From: a virus
Virus record (IMG/VR): IMGVR_UViG_3300045922_000122
Coordinates: 1-64,000 of that record
Reading direction: 5' to 3' (one strand)
Length of the DNA stretch: 64,000 bases
This document shows, piece by piece, positions 8,111 through 53,908 of the stretch (position 1 is its first letter; each line of letters starts with the position of its first letter). The position numbers and the translations under genes are program-made. The notes beneath the pieces were generated by a model. It was given only the letters and a program-made list of their open reading frames with translations. It was not told the origin of the DNA and searched no databases.

Positions 8111-8560
8111 ATGATAAAAATAATTAATGGCAATCTAATAAGTCTTGCTAAAAATAGCGATTTTGACGTTATAATTCATGGTTGCAATTGTTTTGGAGCA
8201 GATAGCCAAAAAGGAATTTCTAAAAAAATTTTTGAAGCTTTTCCAGAAGCAAGAATTGCAGATAGTAAAACCGCTAAAGGAGATGTATATAAATTAGGAG
8301 ATTATAGTTATTGTTATATAAAATCACTTAGATTAACTATAGTTAATTTATATACACAATATGAACCTGGACTTAATTTTGAATATACTGCTTTAGGATT
8401 AGCTTTAAGAAATTTAGCAAATGCCTTAAATGGTGATGAAATAATAGGAATGCCTTTAATTGGAGCTGGTGTAAATAGAGGTAATTCTGAACAAATACTT
8501 GAAATTATTAAAACAGAGTTAGATAGTTTTAATGTTACAATAATTAAAGAAACGATATGA
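8111..8560 (+). CDS. macrodomain protein (ADP-ribose / Appr-1-p processing family)
   Basis: IINGNL, IIHGCNCF..KGI, VNLYTQ, GMPLIGAG motifs typical of phage macrodomains. Confidence 0.88.
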   Translation: MIKIINGNLISLAKNSDFDVIIHGCNCFGADSQKGISKKIFEAFPEARIADSKTAKGDVYKLGDYSYCYIKSLRLTIVNLYTQYEPGLNFEYTALGLALRNLANALNGDEIIGMPLIGAGVNRGNSEQILEIIKTELDSFNVTIIKETI

Positions 8561-35242: not shown

Positions 35243-35638
35243 TTAATAGCATTTATCTAACATTTCTTTTGTTTTATCTACACCATGTACAGCAGCAAAT
35301 ATTCTAATAGCAGCTTCAGCTTCTTCTATTGTATTAACATTAAATGCTTTTAATGTTATTTCTTTAACAATGGGCGAAGATAATAATTTTTGTTTAAAAT
35401 TACTAATTAAATTTTCAATATTATTTTTATCAAATTGACTGGTTTCTGCTTTAGTAATATTATTATTTTTAACAAATTCTCTAAACCCTTCTATATCTTT
35501 TCTACCTGTTTGATTTACATAATCAGTAAATGTTTGTATAGCTTGTTGTTTTTGTTCAGGTGTTATAGTATTAACACTTTTATATAATTCTTCTAAAGAA
35601 TTATATCTTACTCCTCTATATGTTGGTTTGCAGCTCAT
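35243..35638 (-). CDS. small scaffold-like cargo protein (apparently an empty cassette)
   Basis: contains DIEGFREFVKN.NI, shared with the 5323-aa protein. Confidence 0.7.
   Translation of the reverse strand: MSCKPTYRGVRYNSLEELYKSVNTITPEQKQQAIQTFTDYVNQTGRKDIEGFREFVKNNNITKAETSQFDKNNIENLISNFKQKLLSSPIVKEITLKAFNVNTIEEAEAAIRIFAAVHGVDKTKEMLDKCY
35457..35499. repeat. 43-bp dispersed repeat, copy 1
   Basis: 40/43 identical to 38286-38328. Confidence 0.9.
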
Positions 35639-37936: not shown

Positions 37937-40900
37937 TTATTTTAAAGTTTTTGAATTAATAACTAAACCATTTTTTGCTTTAATTTGACCTTGTTTACCA
38001 GTCATTTTAATAGTTCCATTACTTATTTCTATATCAATACCTCCTCTTTCATGGGAAGCTCCTTTAAATTCTTTAACAATTTCCCATTTACCGCCTTTTG
38101 TAAATTTATTAAAACTCATTCCATCTTTAGCACAAGGATTACCTTCTTCATCTGTATATGTTATTTCAGATTCATCAATAACATCAAACCCTAAAGTTTT
38201 ATATATTTCATTAGCTAATTGAAGATTTTTATCAAATAATTCTTCTACCTGTTGATTAATATTTTCATATTGATTATTTTCTACTATATTATCATTTTTA
38301 ACAAACTCTCTAAAACCTTCTATATCTTGTTTACTTCCTAGTATATGAACTTGTTCTGGTCTAAATACTACAAAAGATTCATCATTAGTCCCTTCTCCTG
38401 TATTAATATATACAAATCCATCAAATTTTGAATTTAATAATTTATTTTCAACTATTTTTTTATCATTAATATCAGGAATTTCTTTTCCATTAAAAGTAGA
38501 TTTATTAGGGTAATTATTTTTTACTTTAAACCAATCATCACCTTTTGGAACATCATAATCTTGATTTATTCCAGTTTCAAAACCAGCATTTTGTATATCT
38601 TTTATAAACCTTGCAGGAGATTCATCTCCAGAATCTCTTTTAAATAGAGGATTTTTAATGTTTATAATACTCAAATACAATGATTTACCTTTTTCTTCAG
38701 CATATAATTTTCTAGTTAAAGCAGCTTTTTTAGAACCAAAATGAATAAAATTATTATTTTTTGGTATATATCCATAATGATAAACAATATCTTTAACTTT
38801 ACTATCAGGAAATATAGTATCTAAATAAGCAGAATATTGTTCTAGAGTTCCAATAGAGGCTAATTCACGATATTGATTAAATAATTCTTTTACTCCTGTT
38901 TTAATCTGATTTTCTCTTTGATTAAAAATACCACTAGCTCTATTTTGAAGTTCTCTTAATCTTTCAGAACTAAAACCAACTTCACCTGTTTCTAAATCAA
39001 CTCTTTTTAGAAAAGCATCTGTAAGTATTTGTGTTAGTTCTTGTTTTTGTAGTTTAGATAATGAATTAAATTTATCCATTATCCATTTTACAAATTTAGT
39101 CCACCAATTCCAAGCTTCACCTCTTTGTTTAACAGCTTGTTCGCCAATAGACTGAACAAGAGCTTCTTCACTTCCCCACTTTCTAATAGCTTCTTGAACT
39201 ATTGGTGTGTTTCTAAACCAAGCTATATAATGGTGAGCGTATTCGTGTGGTAATGTATCTATTCTTTGGTTTAAAGCATCTATAAGAACAGTACCGGCTT
39301 TAATATTAGCTTGACCTATTATTCTATTAAGTTCATCTTTTTGAAATTGTATATTTCCAATTTTTTCAAAATATTTATATTTTCTAATAGCTTCATTAGA
39401 AATTACTTGATATAAATAAGAAGCATCAAAATTTGTAGATTTTAAAAAGTTTAAAACAGTATTATATTTATTAAATTGAGAATGAGCTTTATATCTATTT
39501 AAGATTAAATCTGAAAAAGTATCTACTTTACTTATAGTATCTAATTTATTTATAGATAGATTTTTTACAATATTGTCTTTATTACTCCAATATTGTTTTA
39601 ATAAAAATGCTGCTTGTTCATTTGATTTATATTTAGATAAAATATTATAAGGTAAGTATGACCTTAAAGTATATTGTTGATTTTTATCAAACTTTTTAAT
39701 AGCATTTTCTATACCTTCAAGTTTTACTTTTTTAGTAAAAGAAGCAAATAATCTTGAAAGCGAATAAACTTTATTTACATATTCATTTATTGATTTTAAT
39801 TTTTGTAAATACTTCTCTCTTTTATCTAATAAATCATTTATAAAATCTTCAGATTTTAAATACTTATCTAAAGATTGTAAAGATTCTTCAAAATTATTGT
39901 AAGATATACGATTTTCAAAACTATCACCTATTACTGACTTAACTAAAGAACGTAAACTAAAAGTACTTGTTTTTTTAGGTAGATATTCCCTAGTTTTTAA
40001 TTTTAACTTGTTTTCATAATATTTAATAACTTGTTTTTCTTCTTTTGAAGATAAAGGCTTTTCTTTAACTTCTTTTTTTCTGTTTTCTATTTCTTTTATA
40101 TATTCTTCTATATAATTTTTTTCTTCATATTCAGAATTTTTTATTTCATTTTCTAAAAGATTAATATATTCTTTTGGATTACTAATATTTTGTTCAATGT
40201 ATTCTCTAAACGGAGGCGTTGCATCCGCACCTGCCCATCCTTGAGCTTCTAATATACGATATATAAATCTACCTGCTTCTTTTGGACTTAGATTATAGTT
40301 AGCTTGAATATCATCTAATGTTAAAGGAATAAGTCTTGGTTTATATGTTTCTTTAACTTTTACATGTGAACCTAATCCAAAAAATTCATTAGATATAAAC
40401 TCATGTTGAGGCATATCATAAATATAAATAGCATTATTTATAGCTACAGCAGAAACATAATGAGTTATATCAAAATTTCCAAGAGGTGATTTTACAAAAA
40501 CACTTAATTGGTCTCCATTAGGAGATGAAGGGTAAGGATTTAAACCTATTTTTTTTAAATATTCTGTAGATTCTTTTGCTGTAAAATTACAAATACCGTT
40601 AGGACATAAAGTATCTTGGTTTTCAAATAATTCAAATTTATTTATTTCATCTGGTATTGTTTGATTGAAAACATTTTTATCTGTTTCCCATGTAGGATTA
40701 TTAGTAATATTTAATCCTAGTTCAGGATAAAGAGATTGTATTTTTTCTTGTAATTCTTTTACTAAGTTTAAATCTAAAGGATAATAATTATTATTACTAA
40801 TTTGATTAAATGTTTGATTATTACTTTTATTTATATATAAACCAACGCCGTTAAACGGTTGATATTCTAATCCTTTATCTAATAAATATTTTCTAATAGC

Positions 40901-43900
40901 ACCTTCTCCAACAGAATTATGATTAGAATTTGCATCATTTTCGTTATCAGCGATAAAAAATTTAACTCCTTGAGATAATGCTAAATCAATAGCTTTTTTA
41001 GTTTTTTCTAAATTTTCAGCTTGATTAGGTCTACCTTTACCATTTACAGAAATCATTATAGTTTCACCAGCTTTAAATGAAGTTCTAGTACCACCAAAAG
41101 CATTGGCATATTTATATGTACTTGTACCTGGTTCTCCATAAGCTATAATACCATCTGCATAATCAGCTTTTATTTGGTCTTTTGGAAATTTAGCATTAAT
41201 ATTTATAGGATTTGATTTTTTAATTGGTAAATTAGTAAATTGTTTATTAGAATAAATCTCAGAAGCTGTTTGTCTTTGTCTATTGGGTTCACTTAACAAA
41301 TTTTGATTATTACCTACTTCATTAATTGTATTAGTAGAATTAATACTACCAGAATTTAAATTATTAATATCAGTAGTCCATATTTTACCTTTTATATTAG
41401 CTATAACAGGTAAAGGTATTTCTTGATAAATATAAAATCTACCAGAGCCATCTAATCCAATTCTTTCATAAAGTCTGTAAATATCATTATTGTCTGTTGT
41501 TTTTATAAAAGGAGCTGCTTTATAATCATTTACTCTTAATATTAATTTAGAAGCTTTACTATAACTAACATAAGGAACTATATCTGAATTTCTCCAGTTG
41601 TTTATGTAAAAATTTCTTCTGAATATATTAAAAGTATTAATATGTGCATTAATATCTATTTTATCTAATATAGTTTTAACTACCTTTCTAGAAATTACTG
41701 CTGGAAGTATTTGATTTATACTAAATTGCGTAAAGTTATAACCAGATTGAAGCATAGAAAACTTAATTAAATCTGTTGCTAAGCTTAAATCTTTACCTCC
41801 TCTATTAAACATATCTTCTATAGCAGAAGCTATTTCTTGCATAACATAAGCATTAAAGTTTCTATTAGATAGTCTTATATTATCTATACCATCTCCATCT
41901 GGATTTATCATAGGTATTAAATAATCAAGTCTACTATCTTTAACTTCTTCTTGATATTTTTTAAGTCTTTTAGGTAAACTTTCATCTCCTTTAAATAAAG
42001 ATTGCCAATTAGCAAATTTTTCTCCAGATGTTAATATAGATATTTTAAAATCATTCTTTAAAAGTTTAGATACTTTATTTCTATTTTTAGATTTAAAAAC
42101 TCTTTCTAAAAGTTCTTCTCTAAAAGAATCTAGACTATAAACAACTTCATCAAATTGTTCTGTAAAAATAAGGTCTTTAAATGTAAATAAAGAAGCATTA
42201 TATACTTTTTTAAACGAATCTAAAAATGTAAATTGTAAATATCTATCTAGATTTTTAAAATTACCACTAGTTAAAATTTCTCTATTTGTTTTTAATAAAT
42301 CTTTTACAGCATCTGTACTTCCTAACCCTCTAGTATCAAAAGAAAATGCACTTCGCATTTGACTTATTTTAAAAGCAACTTTTTTATAGGTTAAGAAGTC
42401 TTCTAATATATTTTGTTGTACTTGTCTATTAAATTGTTGTAATTGCTCTAATGTAAGTTTATTGTATTTATAATCACCATATTTAGTTTTTAATTGTTCT
42501 AGTTCATCTTCTTTAGTAGAAATCATAGTAGATATTGATTTATGTCTACTTATTATTTCTACATATTCTCTTATTATAGGTTGGCTTATAAAGTATAATG
42601 CTGTTTGAGAAGGTAATCCTGCTGAAACTAAGAATAGAAAAACATCTGCTGTTTCAGCATTTAGATTAAACCTTTCCATAACTTCTGGGTTCTTTACAAC
42701 GTCTACTGCTAAAGAAACACCTTGTCCTAATACATTAGATATTTTTTCATTAGTAGGATTACCATTTTCATCTACTGTATATATATTACCTAGACTGTAA
42801 TATCCATTTGAGTCTTTTTCTATTCCTTTAAAATTTATAGAAAAGTTTAAAACTTCATCATCAAGTTTAAGATTACTATTTATTCTAATATCAGCTATTT
42901 GAAATAAAGGATGACTTTTGTTAGCTAAAGCAAATATACCAACTAATCCTTTACCATACCAAAACATATTTCTAAGAGTAGAAATTGTTTTGAAATTAAG
43001 TAAATCTGTAAAGCTATAATTATTAATAACTCTATCAGGATAAAACTCTTGTAATTTCTTTTCTATAACTAAAGATAAATCTTTATATTTACTAATACTG
43101 TTAGGTTCAAGTTTATCTTTAGGACTTCTACTTTCTAATAAAGCTATTGTATATTCCAGTATTTTATTTTGCAAAGCTTTTTCTCTAAGTTCTGGATTAT
43201 TTAGATTTTCTTCATTAGGTTCTACATAAATATATTCATATTTTTTAAGATTTTTATTTTCTTCATTTTTTCGTCTATTAAAATTAATTAAAGCTAATTT
43301 AAGATTAGATATAGCTGTTTTAGTATCTTCACTATATGATTTATATGCTTTAGATTCTTTAAGTTTACCTAATTCACCTTTATCACTTTTTAAACTATAT
43401 GAATTTAAAGCTTGTAATAATTCTGTAAAGGTATAATTACTAGATTTTAATAAATTTTTTATAGCAATTCTATCATCTTCATCTGTATAATTAAAATACT
43501 CATAACTATTTTCAAAATCTTCTAAATCTATTTTATCTACTTTTTTTCTTATAAAATTAGGAAAATAAATATTAATTTTATCAAAGTCAAAGTCAGAACC
43601 TACTTTTTTAGTAATACCGCTAGGAACAATACAAGTATTACCGTAAGACTTAGGTAAAAATCCTTTAACAACTATACTTTCTAAAGAGTTAAGTTGCTCT
43701 GTAGGAATACGAAAGCCATACATTTTTAAATTATTAGGGTCTATCTTATTTATAGTTTGACCTTCAGAAAGAATGTTACCAAAATAATAAGGTAAATATA
43801 TTTCCATAGTTTTACCATTTTCATAAAACTTTAATCCATTAGATTTATATTTACCATTAATTCTTTCTCTTACTTTTAATTCTGTTCCTGTATCTGGAAA

Positions 43901-46900
43901 TTGAACTAAAGATTTACCAAATCTTTTTTGATTAACTGCTTTATTTTCAAATATAGAATATAGAATTGGTTCTAATTTGTTATAATTAACTAATAAATCT
44001 AAATATACAGGTTTTCCTTTTTCAAGACCTTCTAATTCCAATATAAGAGCTTCTATTTGATTATCAGGTATTTCTCCTCTTGAATTAATTTCTTCTATTA
44101 ATAATTTCTTTAAAGCTTCTCCACCATCAGAAAATACAGCTCTACCATTTTCATATTTTAAATTTAATTCTTGTTTTACTTTATCTAAATAATAATCTGT
44201 TAAATCAGATTGTGCTTTAAATAAATCTCTTACAGCTTCTTCTATAGTTAGAACTTTATTTTTAATAGTAATAGTACCTTTTTTAAATGTTCCTTTGTCT
44301 GCTAAATCTGTAGCAATGATAGCAGCTTCTTGCGTACCTCTAGAAGTTTCTTTTGCATCTTTAGGAGAATTTTCTACTTGTATTCCTATACTTTCTATTG
44401 GTATTTCTGTAACAAGTTCATTGTCTATATCTGCTATTTCTCCAGATTCATTATAAAGAGGTTGACCTTGATATTTACCTTTTTCTCCTTTTTTTAATTT
44501 AAACCCTATTTTATTTCCACTTCTAAATACACCAATATCAATTTGGTTATTCCTCATTTTTTCCAATAGAGAGTAAAGAGCAGGGAAAGCTTCTGAATCC
44601 TCTTTAATAGCTTTTATTAAAGTAGGACTTAATCTAAGTAAAGCAAATTTAACATAAAAAGGTTTTAATTCTTCTTCACTAGAATTTCCATATATAACAG
44701 GTTTAATACTAGGTAATATAGAATTAGCTTCTTCTCCTTTACTTTCTAATTCCCAAGCTTTATTCATTTCTTCAGACCAACTATCTGACCTGAATAATAA
44801 ATCTCTATATAAATCATCTAATATAATACCGAAAGAATCAGTTTCATCTATTTCATCGTAACCTTTTACACCTAAAATACTTAATTCTTCTTTTACTGAA
44901 ACTATGTCTTCAAATGTAACTACTTTTACTTTTAATCTGTCTTCTCCTGTTTTACCATCTACTCTAGGCATATAAGTATCCATATATTCATTTATAACAG
45001 GAGTATTAATAACTTGTTTAGTAGTAGCAACAGCACCTGCATACCTTTTAAACATATCTATAAAACTAGCTGTTAAATCTGGTATATTACCTTTATATTT
45101 AGTAATATAATAAGCAGGATTTCCAAAGAGTACTTTTGTTTGTTCTATTGCACTTATAATATAATTAGTAGTAAAAGCAGTAACTACTTTTTCTATTTGT
45201 TCTTCTGTTAATTCTTTTTCTTTACCTTCTTTTATATTTAATACCTCTCTTAAAATTTCTTTACTTACATTAATTTTATTAGATTTAATTATTCCATTAT
45301 TTTTAAATAAGTTATAATTAGATGTAATTTGAAATTCTACATAATCTTTTATCTTATTTTTTACAACTTCTTCACTATCAATTATATTTATAGTATTACC
45401 ATTTTTATCTCTAATATTTTTAAATATAACTAAATCGTTTAAAAATTGTTCTCCATTTACTATAATTTTATCTTTATTTTTCTTTTGTTTTATAATTTCT
45501 AATTCAGTTAAATAATATTTATATAACTGGTCTACAGTTTGCTTTACCATATCAAACTTACTATAACCAGATATATTTATAAAAAAGTTATCTAAACTAA
45601 ATGTTCTAAAACTTTTCTTATCTCCTGTAATTAAAAAGCTAAAGTTTTTAGATAGTATATTATTAAGTTCTACAATTAGAAAATCTTTAAAACTTAATTG
45701 TGAAACATCTTGACCTGTTTCAGCAGCTTTACTCATACCATTAGTAATACCTACTCTTATGGCATTTTTCTTTTTTGAAATTCTTTCTAATATTATACTA
45801 TCTCTAGCGTATATATTAGTATTTTTATTTAAAAAGTTAGGTATTATCCCTGAAGAAAGTTTATATACTAATCTAGATATGTAATTATGTAGAGTAATAG
45901 AATAAATCATTTCTCCTTTTGAAGTAACAGCTACGTTTTCTACAACATCTTCATTAAAAGAAGATTCTAATTCTACTAATCTCTTTAATCTACTTAAAGA
46001 AGTATTAGTATAGAAATCTTTACTTCCTAATTTATCTAAAGTTATCTTTTCTGATTTTAAATCGTTTATTAATAGAGTTATACTTTTTAAATCTTCTATT
46101 CCATTTTCAGAATTTAAATAATTTTTAACAGCTTCTTTATTTTCAAATTTTATACCTAGTTTTTCTAGAAAATCTAATTGTTGAGTTGTAGTAGAAGCTA
46201 AATATTCTTTTCCTTTTTTAGTTAATCTTATTGTTCCATTTTCTCTATAAACTAAATCATTATTTATAGTTAATAGATTATTTAACCACTTTCTTAAAGT
46301 AATATCTTGAGTTTTAGTGGTATTTGTATTAACTCTATTTACAGTACCGTCTCTATTTACTATTAAATTTTCAAAGTTTTCTTTATGTTTAGAAAAAGAA
46401 TTGTAAAAAGAAACTATAAATTGTGCACTATAATAATCTCCATTTTTAGCTCTATCTTCTAATAAATTTAATAGATTATAAAGTTTTCTAAAGCCTGTAT
46501 CTTTACTATTTAAAAGCCTACCTTTAATTTCTTCATAACTAATAGAATTAGCTAATTTATTCATTAGCTTATTTATAAATTTATCATATTCATAAGTATC
46601 AGCAAAAGAAGCTAAAACTAATCTTAAAGGAGTTTTTATTTTAGATTTTTGATTTATTAAATACGCTTCTTTATAACTTTCATTAGATACTTCTTTACTA
46701 ATAACCTCATCTTTACCTAAAGATAAATCTGATTCTTCTTCTGAAATGTCATCTTCTTCTATATCTTCCTCACTTGGTTGTGTATAACCTAAAGCTTTTA
46801 TAAAATCTTTATGAATAACTACTGCTTGTTGTAATATTTCTTTCTTTCTTTCATAAGGAAGTTCTTCAAATTTTTGTGTTAACCCATCTTCTTCTAACAT

Positions 46901-49900
46901 TTCTTTAAATGAAGCGTTATATATAGGTCTTATTATTTCCTTAAAATCATCAGAATTAAAAAGATAAAGAATTTTTATATCATTAGCTAATAATTTAGAT
47001 ATTACTTTATTATGTATTCTTTTAGCTACAGCAGCATTATTAATATTTCTAACAGAATCTAATTTAGAAAACATTAAATTTTCTCTTACTTTTTTAGCAT
47101 TTTTAAATTCTCCTCTTTCTATTCTTGCATAAAAATCTTCTATTTTTTTATTAGTATTTAAAGAAAAAGCAGCTTTTATTAAATTTAATATTTTTCTAAA
47201 TAGACTTTCTTGTTTTTTAGACTTAGCTTTTTTGTTCAGCATATAAATAGCAAACCCTTCAGCTAGTCCTTCTTCTGCTTCTTTATCAGTAGCATCAGGT
47301 TTATTATTTATTAATCTCCATTCATCCCATAATTCTTTTTGTTCTTCTTTAGATATTAATAAATTTGATACATAGTGAAACGCTTCGTGGTATTCTGTTC
47401 CTTGTTCTCCCATCGTAGATAGAAGTATTTTACCATTACTTAAAATTCTACCACTAGCTATACCTTCAATAAGATTATCTACTCTTTCATAAGATTCTCT
47501 ATCTGTTATATCTATACCTAAAGTTTCAACCAACCAATTTTCAGCTTCTTCTATATTTATAGTATCTAAAATACCTGTATAAATTCTAAAAGCAGAATTG
47601 ATAGCATCATCAATAGCTTTATCAATATCAGAAAAATTATTAGAATTAGTTTTAGGCTTAGCTTCAGGATTTATATTAGGGTCATTTAAATCAACTTTAG
47701 GAGCTTCTCCAAAAAACCCTTCTAAACTTGCTTCATTTTTTATATTAGATTCTTGAGCTTTTTTCTCTAAATTTTGTTCAAATTCTTTAGTAATTTTAAA
47801 ACTATATTTAGGTTTTCCTAAAATAGGTAAAATATTATCTTCTATTTCTTTAATAATTTGTTCTACAGATTTGGTTTCCATATTATTTCCACCAAAATCT
47901 AAATTTATCTTATTTTCAAATTCATCTACTTCAGGAATCCTTTCTTTAGTTTCTATTTTAAATTTTCTATTTTTAACATCTACTATAACATTAAAATTAT
48001 TATCTTCTCTAATTGCAGTTATTTTAGTAACTTTAGATTTATTATCTTCTGTTTGAGGAATAGTATTATTTATGGTTTCTTTACTTTCTCCCGATAAGGT
48101 AGAATCAGGAGAAAGTGGATTAGGTTCAAATGTAGCATACCCTTGTTGAAATCTTCTAACTTTATCGTTTATAATATCATCTTCAGTAGCATCTTGCTTA
48201 ATCCTTAAAAATGTAGTCAATGGAATATCTTCTATTTGCCTAGTAGTACCATTAGGCATTAATGGAGAAGTTAAATAATGTTTATAACTATCCCATTCTG
48301 TTTCTTCAAAACTATAACCATTCCATAAAACTGATTTATACTTAGGTAAGTTTTCTTCTTTATTTTTATTATTAAGTAGAGCTAAAATTCTATTATTTAC
48401 ATTTAGTACTTTTTTCTGTAAAGTTTCAATTATTTCATCTTTATTTTCTTCTAAAGTATCTAAAGTTATAACTTTATTTTGTAATACTAAAACATCTTCT
48501 TTTATATCAAAAGGAATTACAGAATTTTCAGATAAATAAACTATATTTTCTATATAAGTAATTAAATTTTTATAACTTAAATTTAAACTTTCAGTTGTCT
48601 TTGCCTCTTTTGCTTTTTCACTAGCTGTATTAGGTAAAGTACTTCTATAGTTTTGTAAGTAAGCTTTAACTAATTGATATACAGTTTCTGCTTCTTGTCT
48701 ATTTATTTTTCTAGTAATAGCAGGTATCCAAGTATTTCCAAGTTTAAATAACACTCTACCAGCAGGATATACTATTCTTCTTTCGCCAGCAGTTATAGTT
48801 CTATTTGTTTTACCTTTTTCAGATTTCTCTCCTATAGATACTAATATATTTAACTTATCAGCTATATCACTTTCTTTTTCTACAATAGTACCTACTACAG
48901 AATTTTTAGTTTTATTACTTATAGGTTTACCAGGATTAAAAGATGTTATATTAAAAAAGAAGTTCTTATTACTATTCTTTTTAATAATATCTCTAATTTG
49001 TTTATGTACTTCTAGAGCATTACTTAATATTTCAGCTTTAGTTTCTTTGCTAAGGTCTTTGTTAAAAAAGCTATATCTAGGAGAATTAGTATCTTTAAAA
49101 TTTAAAGATAAATCTCTAAGTTTAGCATATACAACACCTCCATAAGCTATAACTGGTTTGTTTTCAGAATCTACTAAAACAAGTCTTATATCATCTTCAT
49201 TATGATTTACTCCTTCTATTTTAGGGTCATTATAAACAGAATTAGGCTTTCCTAAACCATAAACTTCATCGTTTATAGTAACAGACATGAATTTATAGTT
49301 TTTAGGGTCTTCATTTATTCCTATATTCTCTAACCATCTAAAAAATCTACGTTCTTCTATAACTGGATTAGAACTTTCACCAGGTTTACCATAATCACCT
49401 CTTTCACTATCTCTACCTGTAGAAACAGCCCAACCGTATAAATCTACATAAGTAGCTTGATATAAGTATGAATCATTTTCTAAATCCTCGTCTAATTCAT
49501 TATCTAAAGTCTCTATAACTCCTTTATTGGCAACACTAAATTTCTTTTGTACTTCTTTTTCAGTTTTAGCTTTTTCTTCTACTAAATTTTTATATTCTTT
49601 TTTCAAAGAATCTGCTTGTACTTTAAAGCTAGATAAACTAGACAATTTCTTTAAAAGAGAGTTATAATAACCTAACTTACTTTTTTCTTCAAGTATAGCA
49701 ACTTTTCTTCCTTCTAAAAAGTTTATCTTACCAAAATAATCATAACTTAATTCAAATAAAGCTTCTATATCTTTTTCTAAATCTTTATCTAATATTTTAT
49801 TACTTGTAAAATAAGCATGAAGTCCATCTATAGTTTTTTCAGGTAATAGTCCTTCAGGTATTCTTTTAATAATATCAGATAATAAAGAGTTAAATCCTTT

Positions 49901-52900
49901 CTTTAAATCAGTAGTTTGACTATTTATAGATTCTAGTTCAATATTTAATTTATCTATAATAGTTTTAATGTCTTCTTCATATTTACTTAAATCTTCTTTT
50001 ACTTTGTCAAACTTATTTAAAGTTTCTTCATATAATTTTATTTTATCTTTTATTTTCTTTAAGTATTCAGGATTATCTACATTTTTACCAGTAGGAGCTG
50101 CTTTTTTAAATTCATTATATGAAGCTTTAACTTCTTCTAATTCTTTATTTAAAACTTGTAATGCTTCATAAACATTAGAATTTTCTTGTTGAATTAAATT
50201 AAGTCTTTCTTGTTTAATTGATTTTAAATTTTCTAATTGTCTTAAAATTTCAAGTCCTCTTTGAAGTAGTCTGTAAGTTTTATCTTTAGCTTGTTTAGAA
50301 TTAAATCTATTAGAAGAAGTTCTTTCAGTATATTCTTTATTAACCTCTTCAAATTCTTTTTGTAAAGTATCTATATTTTCATTAATTGTAGATAGATTTA
50401 TTTCTTTTAAATTATTAACAGCATCTTGTTGTTCTGCAATTAAAGATTCTAAAGAAATTATTCTAGCTTGATACTGTCTATTTATTCTATTTATTTCATC
50501 TTGACGTTGTAAATATTCTGAATTTACATAACTTATAGTATAACGTACTGTTATTTTTTCAGATTTATTTTTATCTGTAGTTTTTTCTGTTTCTTGTGTT
50601 TCTTCTGCTTCTTCTAATTCTTCTGGTGAAGTTGTATAATTTCCTTCTTCTAATCTTTTTTTATATTCTTCTCTATCTTTTTTACTGTAAAAAGATTCTT
50701 CGTAAAAAGCTACACCTGTTTTTTCTAAATTTTCTCTTACTTGTTTTACAAAATTAGCAGCAGATTTTGTTTTTATTCTTTTAAAAGTAGTACCATCTTT
50801 TTTTCTATAAGTAAGTTCTACAAATATCCAATTGCCCTTACTATCTTTTACCTGTTCATATAAAGTATTAGGGTCTCCTTCTTTGTAAAAAAGTCTTTTT
50901 ACAGGACCTTTATCAGTACTAAGAACAATAGCACCAGATAAAAATTTAGAAGATAATTCAGAACTAGCTCTCTTTACTATTGGTGTTTTTAATTCTTTAG
51001 CTTCCTTAGTAAGAGCTTCTACTTCTGGAAAATAAGTCTTTTCTAAAACATCATCTCCATCAACATAAGTATTTAAATTTTTATATAACTGAGCTACTTC
51101 ACTATTTACAGCCTTTTTTTCAGCATCTTTTTCTTTTTTCTTTTCTAGTAAACTTAAAGCTTTTTTCTCTCTTCTGTACTCTTCTAGTTCTTCATTAGTA
51201 ACCATTTTATAATAAGCTTCTACTAATTTAGTTCTAAAATCAGAGAGAGTTAATAAGTCTAATCCTTTTTCTGCTTCTTTTTTACCATTTTCTTTATCTT
51301 TTTCTATTAATGCTAAATCTTCTAGAAAAGCATTTCTACTATCTTTATCTAACATTACTCTAGAAAAATCTTGTAAATCAACAGCACTTCTCCAATCTCT
51401 TTCTTGTTCAAATTCAGATTGTTTTTCTAGTAATAAATCTCCGTACTTATCAATACTTTCTTTTAAAGCATCTCTTAAATCTTCTAAATTAGTATATCTT
51501 TTACCTTTAGTAAAAGATATTAAATCTAATAAATCATTTCCTTCTTTTTGTAGTTCTTCATCTATAAATTCATTATTGCTAAGTTTGTCTAAAACTCTTT
51601 TTAGTAAGTTTTCGTATTCAGCTTTAGCTTTAATTTCTTTTCTAAAATTATATCTAGAGCTTGTTTTTCCTTTAGTAGCTATTTGTTGTAATTCTCTTAA
51701 TAATTTGTTACCTCTTTCTAAAACATCTTCTGTTTGTACAACGTTTAAGAATAATGACTTTCTAGTATCTTCTGAATAATTAGAAAATCTATAATTTATA
51801 CTTTGATATAATTCTTCAAATTTATCTATTCTTTCAGATATTTTCTTTAATCTATTTCTCATTTTGCTAACTAGAGCTTCATCACTCAAGTCGTCAAAAG
51901 GAGATTTAGTAACTTCAGTTTCTTTACCGTTAATATTTTCAGTAACAGTATAAGAAAGCATTTTTCTTAATTCAGAAGCAGCTTTTTCTATACCTATTTT
52001 AGGTTCTTTTTGTAATTCTTCTCCTAAAGATAATTTATTTTTAATTTCATTATATCTATTTATTAAATTAGCTATAACTCCATCTTTTTTTATATTAGAT
52101 AAGTTTCTAGGGCTTTCATCCAAATTTTCTACATTTTCAGGTAGGTCGCTAAAATCTAAAGATTCTAAGATTTGTATACTCTTTTCTATAAATTCTAATT
52201 CTTCTTTATATTTATTAATAGTTTCAGCACTAGAACTACCTTCTAATATAGAATTTAAATCATTTATTTTTTCTTTTAAAACATCTAATTGACCTATATC
52301 AGAAAAAGCAGCTACCATATTAGCTAGTTGTACTTTTTCTTGAGTTCTTGCTACTGCTTCAAATCCTTTAGCGTATGCCTCATTTTTTGATTTTTGTATT
52401 GCAGCATCACTTACCATGTAATCGAATAAACTTCTAAATTTATCATTAGTAGCATATTCGTTAGCTTTAGCAATAGCAGCATTTGTAGCTTTTAAGCTTT
52501 CATTATATTCTCTTATTCCATTAGCAATACCACCACCAATTCCAATTCTTAAATTACCTTTATCATTTCTTTTAATATAAGGCAATCCTAATCCGCCAAA
52601 TATAAAACCACCGAAAGCATTTTCCCAACCTTCAGCACTTCCATAAGCTTCTTCAAGTCCTTTAAATATAGAACCTATTATAGTTTTAGTATTTTCTAAA
52701 GCCTCTTTATCTGTTCTTAAATCAAAGTAATCTTTAGTTCCCTCTGCTGTTGCAAACTGTAATTGTTCTTGTGTCATTTCAGCAAATGGATTTTTACCGC
52801 CAGATATTATATATTTAGCTATCTTTTCAGCTTTTGACATTTGCTTAGTAGCAAAAGAAAGCCCTTCTTTAGTTGTAGATTTTGTTATTATATCTGTAAG

Positions 52901-53908
52901 AACTTTGGAATTTAGTTTTACTCCACCAGTTAATAAATTTTTAAACTGAACATAATCAAAAAGACTTAATGCAGCAACATTAATTCCAAATATAGTATTT
53001 TGTAAATATTTCTTTTCTTCTTCTAATCTTTTTAATTCAAATTCAGGTATATTTTCACCATATCTATATTTTAAATTTTCTAATTGTTCTTGTTCCCATT
53101 CTCTACCATTAGATAAAGCTTCTATTCTAGCTTCACCCATTTTTCCTAAAATACTACTACCTATTTGATTTATAGCTGTCCTAGTTTTTATTTTACCAGC
53201 CATTTGTATAATATCATCTGCTATTTGTTCTACTCTCATAGGATTAGCTTCCATAGCAGTTAACATTCTTTTAGCGGTAGTTTTTAAAGTAGTGCTGCCT
53301 TGACCTTCTATCTTAGCTAAAGCATTTACAACTTTACTATATTTTCCTAATTTATTTAATGATAATAAAGCCCCTAAAATATTACCAGTTAAAACTGTTG
53401 CTCCTAAAGCACCTACTAAAAATCCAGCATTTTCAAATTGATGTAGCCAGAAATTAGCAGTACTAAGTTTTTCATAAAAAGGTTTATTTTTATCTGCTTC
53501 AGTATCATAAAGTATATTATTAGTTCTAACTTCTTCTAACCATTCATCTAAACTAGAAGAAAAAGGATTATCTACAAAATCATTAAATTCTATCTCACCA
53601 TCCTTACCACCTTTTGCCAAATTTGCAATACCAGCTACAGTTCCTACAAAAGTATCTAAAAATGTACTACCTGCTATAGCTCCAAATACTTTTCCGCTTC
53701 TCCATAATTTATTAGAAAACGGTTGTAATAAAGCTGCTTCTTCATAAAGATTAGCAGTAGGCATTATATTATTAACGCCAAAATTATACAAATCTTCTTG
53801 AAGCTTTTTATTTACATTATAGTAAATAGGAGCACCTGATTCTTTAGTAATATCGTATTTAACTGTATCTTTTTTTGGAGTAATGTCTGAACTTCTAATG
53901 ATTTCCAT
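37937..53908 (-). CDS. giant virion RNA polymerase polyprotein (crAss-type) with zincin domains and a C-terminal effector array
   Basis: FRIPTE..NS and catalytic GSDFDFDK (43577-43600); HEAFH (47375-47389); N-terminal hydrophobic segments; HEYAH and other C-terminal domains. Confidence 0.92.
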   Translation of the reverse strand: MEIIRSSDITPKKDTVKYDITKESGAPIYYNVNKKLQEDLYNFGVNNIMPTANLYEEAALLQPFSNKLWRSGKVFGAIAGSTFLDTFVGTVAGIANLAKGGKDGEIEFNDFVDNPFSSSLDEWLEEVRTNNILYDTEADKNKPFYEKLSTANFWLHQFENAGFLVGALGATVLTGNILGALLSLNKLGKYSKVVNALAKIEGQGSTTLKTTAKRMLTAMEANPMRVEQIADDIIQMAGKIKTRTAINQIGSSILGKMGEARIEALSNGREWEQEQLENLKYRYGENIPEFELKRLEEEKKYLQNTIFGINVAALSLFDYVQFKNLLTGGVKLNSKVLTDIITKSTTKEGLSFATKQMSKAEKIAKYIISGGKNPFAEMTQEQLQFATAEGTKDYFDLRTDKEALENTKTIIGSIFKGLEEAYGSAEGWENAFGGFIFGGLGLPYIKRNDKGNLRIGIGGGIANGIREYNESLKATNAAIAKANEYATNDKFRSLFDYMVSDAAIQKSKNEAYAKGFEAVARTQEKVQLANMVAAFSDIGQLDVLKEKINDLNSILEGSSSAETINKYKEELEFIEKSIQILESLDFSDLPENVENLDESPRNLSNIKKDGVIANLINRYNEIKNKLSLGEELQKEPKIGIEKAASELRKMLSYTVTENINGKETEVTKSPFDDLSDEALVSKMRNRLKKISERIDKFEELYQSINYRFSNYSEDTRKSLFLNVVQTEDVLERGNKLLRELQQIATKGKTSSRYNFRKEIKAKAEYENLLKRVLDKLSNNEFIDEELQKEGNDLLDLISFTKGKRYTNLEDLRDALKESIDKYGDLLLEKQSEFEQERDWRSAVDLQDFSRVMLDKDSRNAFLEDLALIEKDKENGKKEAEKGLDLLTLSDFRTKLVEAYYKMVTNEELEEYRREKKALSLLEKKKEKDAEKKAVNSEVAQLYKNLNTYVDGDDVLEKTYFPEVEALTKEAKELKTPIVKRASSELSSKFLSGAIVLSTDKGPVKRLFYKEGDPNTLYEQVKDSKGNWIFVELTYRKKDGTTFKRIKTKSAANFVKQVRENLEKTGVAFYEESFYSKKDREEYKKRLEEGNYTTSPEELEEAEETQETEKTTDKNKSEKITVRYTISYVNSEYLQRQDEINRINRQYQARIISLESLIAEQQDAVNNLKEINLSTINENIDTLQKEFEEVNKEYTERTSSNRFNSKQAKDKTYRLLQRGLEILRQLENLKSIKQERLNLIQQENSNVYEALQVLNKELEEVKASYNEFKKAAPTGKNVDNPEYLKKIKDKIKLYEETLNKFDKVKEDLSKYEEDIKTIIDKLNIELESINSQTTDLKKGFNSLLSDIIKRIPEGLLPEKTIDGLHAYFTSNKILDKDLEKDIEALFELSYDYFGKINFLEGRKVAILEEKSKLGYYNSLLKKLSSLSSFKVQADSLKKEYKNLVEEKAKTEKEVQKKFSVANKGVIETLDNELDEDLENDSYLYQATYVDLYGWAVSTGRDSERGDYGKPGESSNPVIEERRFFRWLENIGINEDPKNYKFMSVTINDEVYGLGKPNSVYNDPKIEGVNHNEDDIRLVLVDSENKPVIAYGGVVYAKLRDLSLNFKDTNSPRYSFFNKDLSKETKAEILSNALEVHKQIRDIIKKNSNKNFFFNITSFNPGKPISNKTKNSVVGTIVEKESDIADKLNILVSIGEKSEKGKTNRTITAGERRIVYPAGRVLFKLGNTWIPAITRKINRQEAETVYQLVKAYLQNYRSTLPNTASEKAKEAKTTESLNLSYKNLITYIENIVYLSENSVIPFDIKEDVLVLQNKVITLDTLEENKDEIIETLQKKVLNVNNRILALLNNKNKEENLPKYKSVLWNGYSFEETEWDSYKHYLTSPLMPNGTTRQIEDIPLTTFLRIKQDATEDDIINDKVRRFQQGYATFEPNPLSPDSTLSGESKETINNTIPQTEDNKSKVTKITAIREDNNFNVIVDVKNRKFKIETKERIPEVDEFENKINLDFGGNNMETKSVEQIIKEIEDNILPILGKPKYSFKITKEFEQNLEKKAQESNIKNEASLEGFFGEAPKVDLNDPNINPEAKPKTNSNNFSDIDKAIDDAINSAFRIYTGILDTINIEEAENWLVETLGIDITDRESYERVDNLIEGIASGRILSNGKILLSTMGEQGTEYHEAFHYVSNLLISKEEQKELWDEWRLINNKPDATDKEAEEGLAEGFAIYMLNKKAKSKKQESLFRKILNLIKAAFSLNTNKKIEDFYARIERGEFKNAKKVRENLMFSKLDSVRNINNAAVAKRIHNKVISKLLANDIKILYLFNSDDFKEIIRPIYNASFKEMLEEDGLTQKFEELPYERKKEILQQAVVIHKDFIKALGYTQPSEEDIEEDDISEEESDLSLGKDEVISKEVSNESYKEAYLINQKSKIKTPLRLVLASFADTYEYDKFINKLMNKLANSISYEEIKGRLLNSKDTGFRKLYNLLNLLEDRAKNGDYYSAQFIVSFYNSFSKHKENFENLIVNRDGTVNRVNTNTTKTQDITLRKWLNNLLTINNDLVYRENGTIRLTKKGKEYLASTTTQQLDFLEKLGIKFENKEAVKNYLNSENGIEDLKSITLLINDLKSEKITLDKLGSKDFYTNTSLSRLKRLVELESSFNEDVVENVAVTSKGEMIYSITLHNYISRLVYKLSSGIIPNFLNKNTNIYARDSIILERISKKKNAIRVGITNGMSKAAETGQDVSQLSFKDFLIVELNNILSKNFSFLITGDKKSFRTFSLDNFFINISGYSKFDMVKQTVDQLYKYYLTELEIIKQKKNKDKIIVNGEQFLNDLVIFKNIRDKNGNTINIIDSEEVVKNKIKDYVEFQITSNYNLFKNNGIIKSNKINVSKEILREVLNIKEGKEKELTEEQIEKVVTAFTTNYIISAIEQTKVLFGNPAYYITKYKGNIPDLTASFIDMFKRYAGAVATTKQVINTPVINEYMDTYMPRVDGKTGEDRLKVKVVTFEDIVSVKEELSILGVKGYDEIDETDSFGIILDDLYRDLLFRSDSWSEEMNKAWELESKGEEANSILPSIKPVIYGNSSEEELKPFYVKFALLRLSPTLIKAIKEDSEAFPALYSLLEKMRNNQIDIGVFRSGNKIGFKLKKGEKGKYQGQPLYNESGEIADIDNELVTEIPIESIGIQVENSPKDAKETSRGTQEAAIIATDLADKGTFKKGTITIKNKVLTIEEAVRDLFKAQSDLTDYYLDKVKQELNLKYENGRAVFSDGGEALKKLLIEEINSRGEIPDNQIEALILELEGLEKGKPVYLDLLVNYNKLEPILYSIFENKAVNQKRFGKSLVQFPDTGTELKVRERINGKYKSNGLKFYENGKTMEIYLPYYFGNILSEGQTINKIDPNNLKMYGFRIPTEQLNSLESIVVKGFLPKSYGNTCIVPSGITKKVGSDFDFDKINIYFPNFIRKKVDKIDLEDFENSYEYFNYTDEDDRIAIKNLLKSSNYTFTELLQALNSYSLKSDKGELGKLKESKAYKSYSEDTKTAISNLKLALINFNRRKNEENKNLKKYEYIYVEPNEENLNNPELREKALQNKILEYTIALLESRSPKDKLEPNSISKYKDLSLVIEKKLQEFYPDRVINNYSFTDLLNFKTISTLRNMFWYGKGLVGIFALANKSHPLFQIADIRINSNLKLDDEVLNFSINFKGIEKDSNGYYSLGNIYTVDENGNPTNEKISNVLGQGVSLAVDVVKNPEVMERFNLNAETADVFLFLVSAGLPSQTALYFISQPIIREYVEIISRHKSISTMISTKEDELEQLKTKYGDYKYNKLTLEQLQQFNRQVQQNILEDFLTYKKVAFKISQMRSAFSFDTRGLGSTDAVKDLLKTNREILTSGNFKNLDRYLQFTFLDSFKKVYNASLFTFKDLIFTEQFDEVVYSLDSFREELLERVFKSKNRNKVSKLLKNDFKISILTSGEKFANWQSLFKGDESLPKRLKKYQEEVKDSRLDYLIPMINPDGDGIDNIRLSNRNFNAYVMQEIASAIEDMFNRGGKDLSLATDLIKFSMLQSGYNFTQFSINQILPAVISRKVVKTILDKIDINAHINTFNIFRRNFYINNWRNSDIVPYVSYSKASKLILRVNDYKAAPFIKTTDNNDIYRLYERIGLDGSGRFYIYQEIPLPVIANIKGKIWTTDINNLNSGSINSTNTINEVGNNQNLLSEPNRQRQTASEIYSNKQFTNLPIKKSNPININAKFPKDQIKADYADGIIAYGEPGTSTYKYANAFGGTRTSFKAGETIMISVNGKGRPNQAENLEKTKKAIDLALSQGVKFFIADNENDANSNHNSVGEGAIRKYLLDKGLEYQPFNGVGLYINKSNNQTFNQISNNNYYPLDLNLVKELQEKIQSLYPELGLNITNNPTWETDKNVFNQTIPDEINKFELFENQDTLCPNGICNFTAKESTEYLKKIGLNPYPSSPNGDQLSVFVKSPLGNFDITHYVSAVAINNAIYIYDMPQHEFISNEFFGLGSHVKVKETYKPRLIPLTLDDIQANYNLSPKEAGRFIYRILEAQGWAGADATPPFREYIEQNISNPKEYINLLENEIKNSEYEEKNYIEEYIKEIENRKKEVKEKPLSSKEEKQVIKYYENKLKLKTREYLPKKTSTFSLRSLVKSVIGDSFENRISYNNFEESLQSLDKYLKSEDFINDLLDKREKYLQKLKSINEYVNKVYSLSRLFASFTKKVKLEGIENAIKKFDKNQQYTLRSYLPYNILSKYKSNEQAAFLLKQYWSNKDNIVKNLSINKLDTISKVDTFSDLILNRYKAHSQFNKYNTVLNFLKSTNFDASYLYQVISNEAIRKYKYFEKIGNIQFQKDELNRIIGQANIKAGTVLIDALNQRIDTLPHEYAHHYIAWFRNTPIVQEAIRKWGSEEALVQSIGEQAVKQRGEAWNWWTKFVKWIMDKFNSLSKLQKQELTQILTDAFLKRVDLETGEVGFSSERLRELQNRASGIFNQRENQIKTGVKELFNQYRELASIGTLEQYSAYLDTIFPDSKVKDIVYHYGYIPKNNNFIHFGSKKAALTRKLYAEEKGKSLYLSIINIKNPLFKRDSGDESPARFIKDIQNAGFETGINQDYDVPKGDDWFKVKNNYPNKSTFNGKEIPDINDKKIVENKLLNSKFDGFVYINTGEGTNDESFVVFRPEQVHILGSKQDIEGFREFVKNDNIVENNQYENINQQVEELFDKNLQLANEIYKTLGFDVIDESEITYTDEEGNPCAKDGMSFNKFTKGGKWEIVKEFKGASHERGGIDIEISNGTIKMTGKQGQIKAKNGLVINSKTLK
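38286..38328. repeat. 43-bp dispersed repeat, copy 2
   Basis: 40/43 identical to 35457-35499. Confidence 0.9.

Follow-up and report, generated by a model that had tools for sequence, protein, structure and literature searches.

A recurring FNQ peptide at the edges of a candidate split zincin in a giant phage cargo protein: a junction tag and possible cleavage site

A giant minus-strand open reading frame (ORF) in the IMG/VR virus record IMGVR_UViG_3300045922_000122 encodes a protein of 5323 residues, the C-terminal part of which carries several copies of a short Gln-ended peptide, typically FNQ. The window examined is positions 1 to 64,000 of that record, 64,000 nucleotides (nt) in all. A first-pass annotation of the DNA had picked out TFNQ, VFNQ, IQFQ, and IFNQ as candidate polyprotein cleavage sites at module boundaries, and translation of the ORF places all four exactly where they had been put (Table 1). 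Its conservation among homologous proteins shows the peptide to be a genuine junction tag, and it is a good candidate for a self-cutting site. The borders it marks are module borders, as proposed, but not those of effectors in general: all four copies edge a single unit, in which an element of about 47 residues (E) and a zincin-like core (Z) appear to be two parts of one fold, with another module nested between them.

Recurrence of the peptide at module borders

Within this protein alone, the number of FNQ copies is weak evidence. Four are found where 0.73 would be expected (TFNQ, VFNQ, IFNQ, and an extra copy, LFNQ, overlooked at first), a count reached by 0.53% of 3000 shuffled sequences. 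All four are within the last 960 residues, and none of 3000 shuffles has as many in the C-terminal 1174. Among the 2782 tripeptides of the entire protein, however, FNQ comes only 26th, so the count is not significant after multiple testing. LFNQ is probably a chance copy, since homologues do not conserve it and have LFDSN, LFNSN, or LFNEN in its place. The dipeptide FQ shows no enrichment in the giant protein (4 seen, 8.4 expected), and the remaining ORFs of the phage have no excess of FNQ (4 seen, 2.25 expected).

The pattern is counted as real because homologues keep the motif at borders. A HMMER search with the last 1199 residues yielded 1525 proteins at an E-value ≤ 0.001, of which the 150 listed were used for analysis. 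In the 149 of these other than the query's own, FNQ occurs 91 times, compared to 29.3 expected. About half of the copies close one conserved segment, LQxLYPEIKLNITNNPxWExGxNV-FNQ, with complete divergence beyond it. Breakpoints were taken from an all-against-all BLASTP comparison of the 150 proteins, as match ends beyond which both proteins continue for at least 60 residues, and form 530 clusters. FNQ lies within 6 residues of 41 of these; random placement gives 4.1 ± 2.0, with a maximum of 10 in 300 trials. Enrichment at domain borders in homologues had been named in advance as a check on the cleavage-site proposal, which in this respect holds up: as in polyprotein sites, one short consensus recurs at borders between modules. 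BLASTP match ends peak on the Q of [FLMYW]NQ (384 at distance 0, compared to ~50–100 at neighbouring positions), and Gln is 4.2-fold over-represented as the last aligned residue, at 95 of the 530 breakpoints. No excess at breakpoints is seen for eight control motifs (QNF, FQN, NFQ, QN[FLMYW], [FLMYW]NE, [FLMYW]DQ, [FLMYW]NK, and [FLMYW]SQ). Many of the 41 FNQ breakpoints share homologous E.

The recurrence could conceivably be chance in a linker region rich in Asn and Gln. Both residues are more frequent in residues 4001–5323, and the tripeptide rank and the stray LFNQ would fit. The motif keeps its register in dozens of proteins drawn from separate 50%-identity clusters, which, together with a 10-fold breakpoint excess against flat controls, makes this explanation very improbable.

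The consensus of the tag is (N/G)-[VI]-[FLMY]-N-Q, with a sister form, N-[IV]-[LM]-[LF]-Q-[KR], just before the zincin core. IQFQ occupies the latter position, and grouping it with the FNQ sites was right: Gln fills the Q4856 column in 101 of the 137 rows of the zincin alignment, and in some 20 of the rows [FLY]NQ replaces the sister consensus. The tags of one protein show no clear agreement in their hydrophobic residue (F, L, or M), several proteins mixing L at E with F at the zincin tail.

Conservation of a border sequence could be at the DNA or at the peptide level. The first-pass annotation had offered recombination joints as its alternative, that is, boundary sequences kept for module swapping by homologous recombination, with no role for the peptide. 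Some observations agree with this: the modules flanking E vary widely (clustering gives 15 unrelated groups for the 100 residues that follow the tag, n = 78, and 42 for the 100 that precede E, n = 60), several other junction peptides also recur, and there are homing endonuclease genes at some junctions. DNA conserved beyond the needs of the peptide is not seen, however. In 23 viral loci, the tag codons vary synonymously (AAT 19 times and AAC 4; CAA 20 and CAG 3; five different codons for the Val/Ile), and synonymous codon identity is no higher in E (0.603, 1241/2057) than in Z (0.639, 5043/7890). For 15 pairs with different downstream modules, the values are 0.717 in E and 0.702 in Z. The tag also persists, as YNQ, in very divergent relatives of higher GC content (P0013). 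Since the peptide is kept while its codons vary, plain recombination joints are disfavoured, and we regard them as unlikely; to judge from these codons, selection is on the tag peptide and not on the DNA.

The split zincin-like unit

E is a portable element: a hidden Markov model finds 91 copies in 89 of the 150 proteins. At its end, in register, are FNQ (49 copies), LNQ (9), MNQ (9), YNQ (4), VNQ (1), and WNQ (1), so that 73 of 91 copies end in [FLMYVW]NQ. Z, found in 131 of the 150 proteins, is the stretch that most of them match. It lies downstream of 89 of the 90 E copies in proteins other than the query's own, and of E in all but two of the viral loci; in one of these two (L010), it is on the next ORF. 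The distance between the E strand and the first Z strand (IIGQANIKA) is bimodal, 11–35 or 177–820 residues with none between, and in minimal relatives (P0061, P0076, P0127, and P0137) E is joined directly to Z by a turn of 6–20 residues. The tag goes with the longer forms. It is present in 73 of 80 E copies with an insert and 3 of 9 without (Fisher 2e-4, relatedness uncorrected), and, among ORFs of 64 IMG/VR loci, in 22 of 24 with an insert and none of 6 without (Fisher 5e-5, again uncorrected); the protein and viral-locus sets overlap.

Iyer et al. (2017; PMC5512222) describe the core of polyvalent-protein zincins as an N-terminal helix, a three-stranded sheet, and two helices. E, with a helix-like stretch and one strand, and Z together match this arrangement. 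We infer from this that the opening helix and strand of the zincin are supplied by E, and that modules are nested in its first hairpin in the long forms. The architecture in the window would then be [TFNQ]-E-[VFNQ]-insert-[IQFQ]-Z-tail-[IFNQ]. Given the bimodal spacing of E from Z and the association of the tag with the long gap, VFNQ and IQFQ are read as the two stems of a 436-residue insert nested in a split zincin, and TFNQ and IFNQ as the outer edges of the same putative unit.

Z has the HExxH motif and downstream Glu expected of a zincin: H44, E45, H48, and E70/E71 are invariant in all 15 rows of one alignment (A2), in which SEE is invariant as a whole, and nearly so in another (A1). A tblastn search with the C-terminal 1323 residues found the HEYAHH unit in no cultured phage among 50,697 phage records, and in one uncultured record. 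A further arrangement of the unit is a side observation: in P0013 (5760 residues), four zincin cores and three E alternate (Z-E-Z-E-Z-E-Z) with YNQ tags, a tandem array of the split unit.

The tag is not confined to the stems of inserts. FNQ is found in register 46–48 residues before the E-end Gln in five of the 91 E copies, after five unrelated upstream sequences. The full zincin tail, GVDLETGxxGISxERSxELAxxASGI, is present in 16 homologues, ending in FNQ in nine and YNQ in three, with differing sequence after it. In relatives, the tag also follows unrelated modules, such as the end of the ART module of P0016. The sister peptide, as ILLQK, precedes an ART module in P0003, and is therefore portable rather than simply part of Z. 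In L010 (5269–8200), E and Z are on consecutive ORFs, the first ending ...KCS and the next starting MACKY, with a 261-residue GIY-YIG homing-endonuclease-like ORF (7335–8120) between E and Z; the unit therefore tolerates a broken chain.

These distributions bear on a structural explanation, in which the tags are never cut. They could be conserved caps, or a short two-stranded stalk, VFNQ pairing with IQFQ, that loops the module out of the zincin beta1–beta2 hairpin, and could end the outer helices as well, the whole functioning as one working chain. The tag does accompany inserts; both stems share N-[VI]-hydrophobic-x-Q; nested insertion requires the ends to meet; and the zincin-bearing virion polymerase of phage N4 is reported to be packaged uncut (PMC5512222, available text), which also counts against processing by the zincin. 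Uncut stems would leave several of the sites unexplained, though: those at the Z tail (12 of 16), 46–48 residues before E, and after the P0016 ART end, as well as the sister motif before an ART module. The separate E and Z of L010 show moreover that a continuous chain is unnecessary. We take the structural explanation seriously while considering it doubtful.

Genome context and flanking modules

The IMG/VR record is 85.6 kb long and estimated there to be 96% complete. Its plus strand carries a replication arm, and its minus strand a virion arm. Matches to crAss-like genes cover residues 2501–4100 of the giant ORF (tblastn, 125 records, some of them annotated "putative RNA polymerase"). Downstream of it are capsid, portal, and terminase genes, the major capsid protein being 27–28% identical to capsid proteins of crAss-like phages. 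From the polymerase matches, the DFDFD motif, and the capsid identity, the giant ORF is read as encoding the RNA-polymerase cargo protein that a distant crAss-like phage packages, extended at its C-terminus by about 1150 residues of modules. Among public sequencing runs, only two, from hot-spring and microbial-mat metagenomes and possibly the source sample, contain the full sequence; all runs listed are of DNA.

Table 1. Features of the giant ORF and its C-terminal modules (window coordinates; assignments of fold and role are predictions)
Feature	Positions	Strand	Residues	Remarks
Giant ORF, putative virion cargo protein	37937..53908	-	5323 in all	RNA-polymerase region, then C-terminal module array
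DFDFD (DFDxD type)	43580-43594	-	3439-3443	Polymerase region of the giant ORF
Module A	40829..41371	-	~4180-4360	Alpha/beta-type ("SLOG-like" at first); homologues match residues 58/103-241 of the 1199-residue query
TFNQ	40802-40813	-	4366-4369	Upstream delimiter of element E
Element E	40661..40801	-	4370-4416	Predicted helix (PLDLNLVKELQEKIQS), strand YPELGLNIT, stem ending VFNQ
VFNQ	40661-40672	-	4413-4416	End of element E; read as upstream stem of insert
Nested insert, 436 residues	39353..40660	-	4417-4852	Collinear homologues P0003, P0004, P0152-P0154
LCPNGICN	40586-40609	-		In the insert's N-terminal Cys/His enzyme-like domain; helical region follows
IQFQ	39341-39352	-	4853-4856	Read as downstream stem of insert; 7 residues before strand IIGQANIKA
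Candidate zincin core Z	38954..39340	-	4857-4985	Strands IIGQANIKA and TVLIDA, two helices (HEYAHH, GSEEALV)
HEYAHH	39230-39247	-		In Z
GSEEALV	39155-39175	-		In Z; invariant
Zincin tail	38918..38953	-		Follows Z; ends in IFNQ
IFNQ	38918-38929	-	4994-4997	End of zincin tail
LFNQ	38873-38884	-	5009-5012	In first helix of next module; probable chance copy
ART-like module	38309..38917	-	4998-5200	Ends in GSKQDIEGFREFV junction peptide
GSKQDIEGFREFV junction peptide	38300-38338	-		End of ART-like module
C-terminal domain, ~70 residues	37940..38161	-		After NPCAKDG (38120-38140); P0017, P0101, and P0148 end likewise

The names first given to the flanking modules fare less well than the sites themselves. 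Searches of Pfam (with long and short pieces) and PHROGs gave no usable family for the C-terminal modules. "SLOG-like" is unsupported for module A, with no Pfam family matched, and TFNQ is not the end of this module: none of eight other homologues of it ends in the motif. For the ART-like module, ART-PolyVal is matched at an E-value of 0.0029, below the cut-off, and by 2 of 43 homologues (best E-value 1.7e-5), so the label stands weakly. "Papain-like" for the insert comes down to a weak language-model lead to papain-fold toxin/transglutaminase-like clusters (0.90, below the recognition benchmark); the LPD23 and LPD1 clusters are likewise language-model leads only.

Several side observations concern other peptides at module junctions. 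GSKQDIEGFKEFV closes ART modules and is also found after the zincin core, and modules may start with GVEELFxSNPELA(N/S) or ITPQQKQQAxQLYSQYLDTIFPDSKVKDIVYHG. A second, partial copy of the start peptide (VEELFDKNLQLANEIYKTLGF) is just before the last domain in the window. Two genes downstream of the giant ORF, a 131-residue ORF (35243–35638, minus strand) repeats the junction peptides of the ART module (ITPEQKQQA... and RKDIEGFREFVKNNNI; 38255–38338, minus strand) without an enzyme core. The two are 78% identical as DNA over ~80 nt and 40% as protein over 63 residues, and the small ORF has the look of a remnant that kept only the junctions, or of a spare end of a cassette.

The giant protein contains a second, different HExxH, HEAFH (residues 2174–2178; 47375–47389, minus strand), upstream of the polymerase region. 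There is no FNQ near it, and its neighbourhood has no Pfam match. HEAFH could correspond to the zincin that Drobysheva et al. (10.1101/2020.03.07.982082) describe in phi14:2 gp65.

Cysteine is rare in these proteins: it makes up 0.12% of residues in the 150 relatives, and the giant protein has just four in 5323 residues. One of these is in EEGNPCAKDG, directly before the last module, and resembles a fused Cys-tipped junction. Among the relatives, 94 of 150 start with M-x(0-3)-C, and 101 have a Cys within the last eight residues. Whether the tag comes after the Cys-tipped N-terminal peptides of split relatives was checked as well; it does so in only 9 of 94, and the idea was dropped.

Possible processing and comparison with known systems

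The reading we favour, tentatively and as something short of probable, is that a zincin completed in cis from E and Z cuts at its own four tags. After folding or ejection, E would dock onto Z, and the completed protease would cut at or next to the Gln of each of its four edges, freeing the nested Cys/His enzyme and cutting loose the alpha/beta and ART-like modules on either side, in much the way that proteases of viral polyproteins release themselves. For a cis-acting zincin as the enzyme are the facts that all four sites adjoin the zincin's own pieces and that no other phage protein is enriched for the tag. A more elaborate version, possible but doubtful, is a self-excising split protease, with E and Z folding round a looped-out effector and the Gln-ended tags serving as its own cleavage code. 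The chain would refold in the host; the protease would complete itself, cut both stems and the outer edges, and release the nested enzyme and the neighbouring effectors. In evolution, new effectors could be loaded simply by insertion between two tags.

A number of results weigh against processing by the zincin, or against the tag as a general border signal. There is no [FLMYW]NQ at 471 of the 530 breakpoints, and the commonest border, the Z-core end AFLTRQDL, is unlike the tag. Residues 1–4365, polymerase included, are without any FNQ, and the motif therefore cannot be a code releasing the polymerase. Other junction peptides, GSKQDIEGFKEFV and GVEELFxSNPELA among them, recur too and resemble plain adaptors. 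The 150 proteins were chosen mostly via the zincin, which biases the co-occurrence of tag and zincin among them. The zincin identity itself, claimed in the first-pass annotation, is upheld as far as the invariant HEYAHH and SEE are concerned, and finds no support in family or structure searches. There is no Pfam match at threshold (DUF4932 has an E-value of 0.016, and SprT-like one of 0.073), and none of 43 homologues matches a zincin family. Sequence searches of the PDB with the protein and two profiles gave coiled-coil or chance matches only, and no zincin. The assignment is one by motifs only.

The tags could also be cut by another protease, whether of the phage head or ejection apparatus or of the host, with the zincin as an effector directed, for example, against host proteins or the cell wall. 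The border evidence would fit this equally well, and it is 3C-like Cys/Ser enzymes that more typically cut at a Gln. An effector role for zincins is allowed in the available texts of Drobysheva et al. (10.1101/2020.03.07.982082) and Iyer et al. (PMC5512222). A general virion protease should have more substrates, however, and FNQ is enriched neither in the other ORFs nor in the first 4365 residues of the giant protein; all four sites are instead next to pieces of the zincin. On these grounds, cutting by another protease seems quite unlikely.

In the available parts of the literature on crAss-like and polyvalent giant proteins, processing is proposed without a site or an enzyme–substrate pair; the tag is a concrete, widely conserved candidate for such a site. 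Its range is broad: the 1199-residue query, Z included, matches 1525 proteins, and the tag is found in most of the listed relatives with an insert. A protease domain split by nested cargo, as suggested here, is an unexpected architecture. Cleavage at the tags would make this a modular system for delivering anti-host enzymes, and the tag a simple rule for locating effector borders across thousands of phage proteins that lack annotation. Without cleavage, the tag would still mark module borders and help in dissecting these cargo proteins.

Two phage systems are the closest comparisons. Fused crAss-like polyproteins have been described as "likely cleaved into individual components," with a zincin-bearing neighbouring protein; in phi14:2, the corresponding genes are gp65 (zincin protein), gp66 (RNA polymerase), and gp67 (Drobysheva et al., 10.1101/2020.03.07.982082, available text). 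Like a phi14:2-type fused polyprotein, the protein in the window is a giant, presumably packaged one, with a DFDxD polymerase region beside a zincin-bearing part. It differs from the phi14:2 description in that the tag is confined to the C-terminal effector array, with none beside the polymerase; the available text of that description gives no site or junction motif. Bayfield et al. (PMC10172136) mention neither cleavage nor a protease. For the polyvalent proteins of phages and conjugative elements, processing by an embedded zincin has been proposed (Iyer et al., 2017, PMC5512222, available text). The resemblance is in the many domains of effector type that a single injected polypeptide combines, among them ART-PolyVal-like and LPD-like modules (represented here by weak matches and leads). 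A site motif and a split or nested zincin were not found described in the available parts of that paper, and the zincin here, unlike those, is without a Pfam family at threshold. No published cleavage motif for crAss-like or polyvalent cargo proteins was found in the literature, supplements being outside the scope of the search.

Among better-known systems, the picornavirus 3C protease and the coronavirus main protease excise themselves from polyproteins, and are flanked by their own sites, with Gln at the cut and hydrophobic residues before it. The candidate zincin is similarly flanked by Gln-ended candidate sites with hydrophobic residues. Those are Cys/Ser enzymes of RNA viruses with demonstrated cuts, whereas this would be a metalloprotease of a DNA phage, split by an insert, and is known from sequence alone. 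The other parallel is with the pre-toxin motifs of polymorphic toxins, VENN of CdiA and DPxGL of Rhs, which in secreted bacterial proteins mark just one junction, that with the C-terminal toxin. Like these, the tag is a short conserved peptide exactly where a constant part meets interchangeable modules; unlike them, it is present in several copies, which bracket an internal candidate protease unit in a phage cargo protein.

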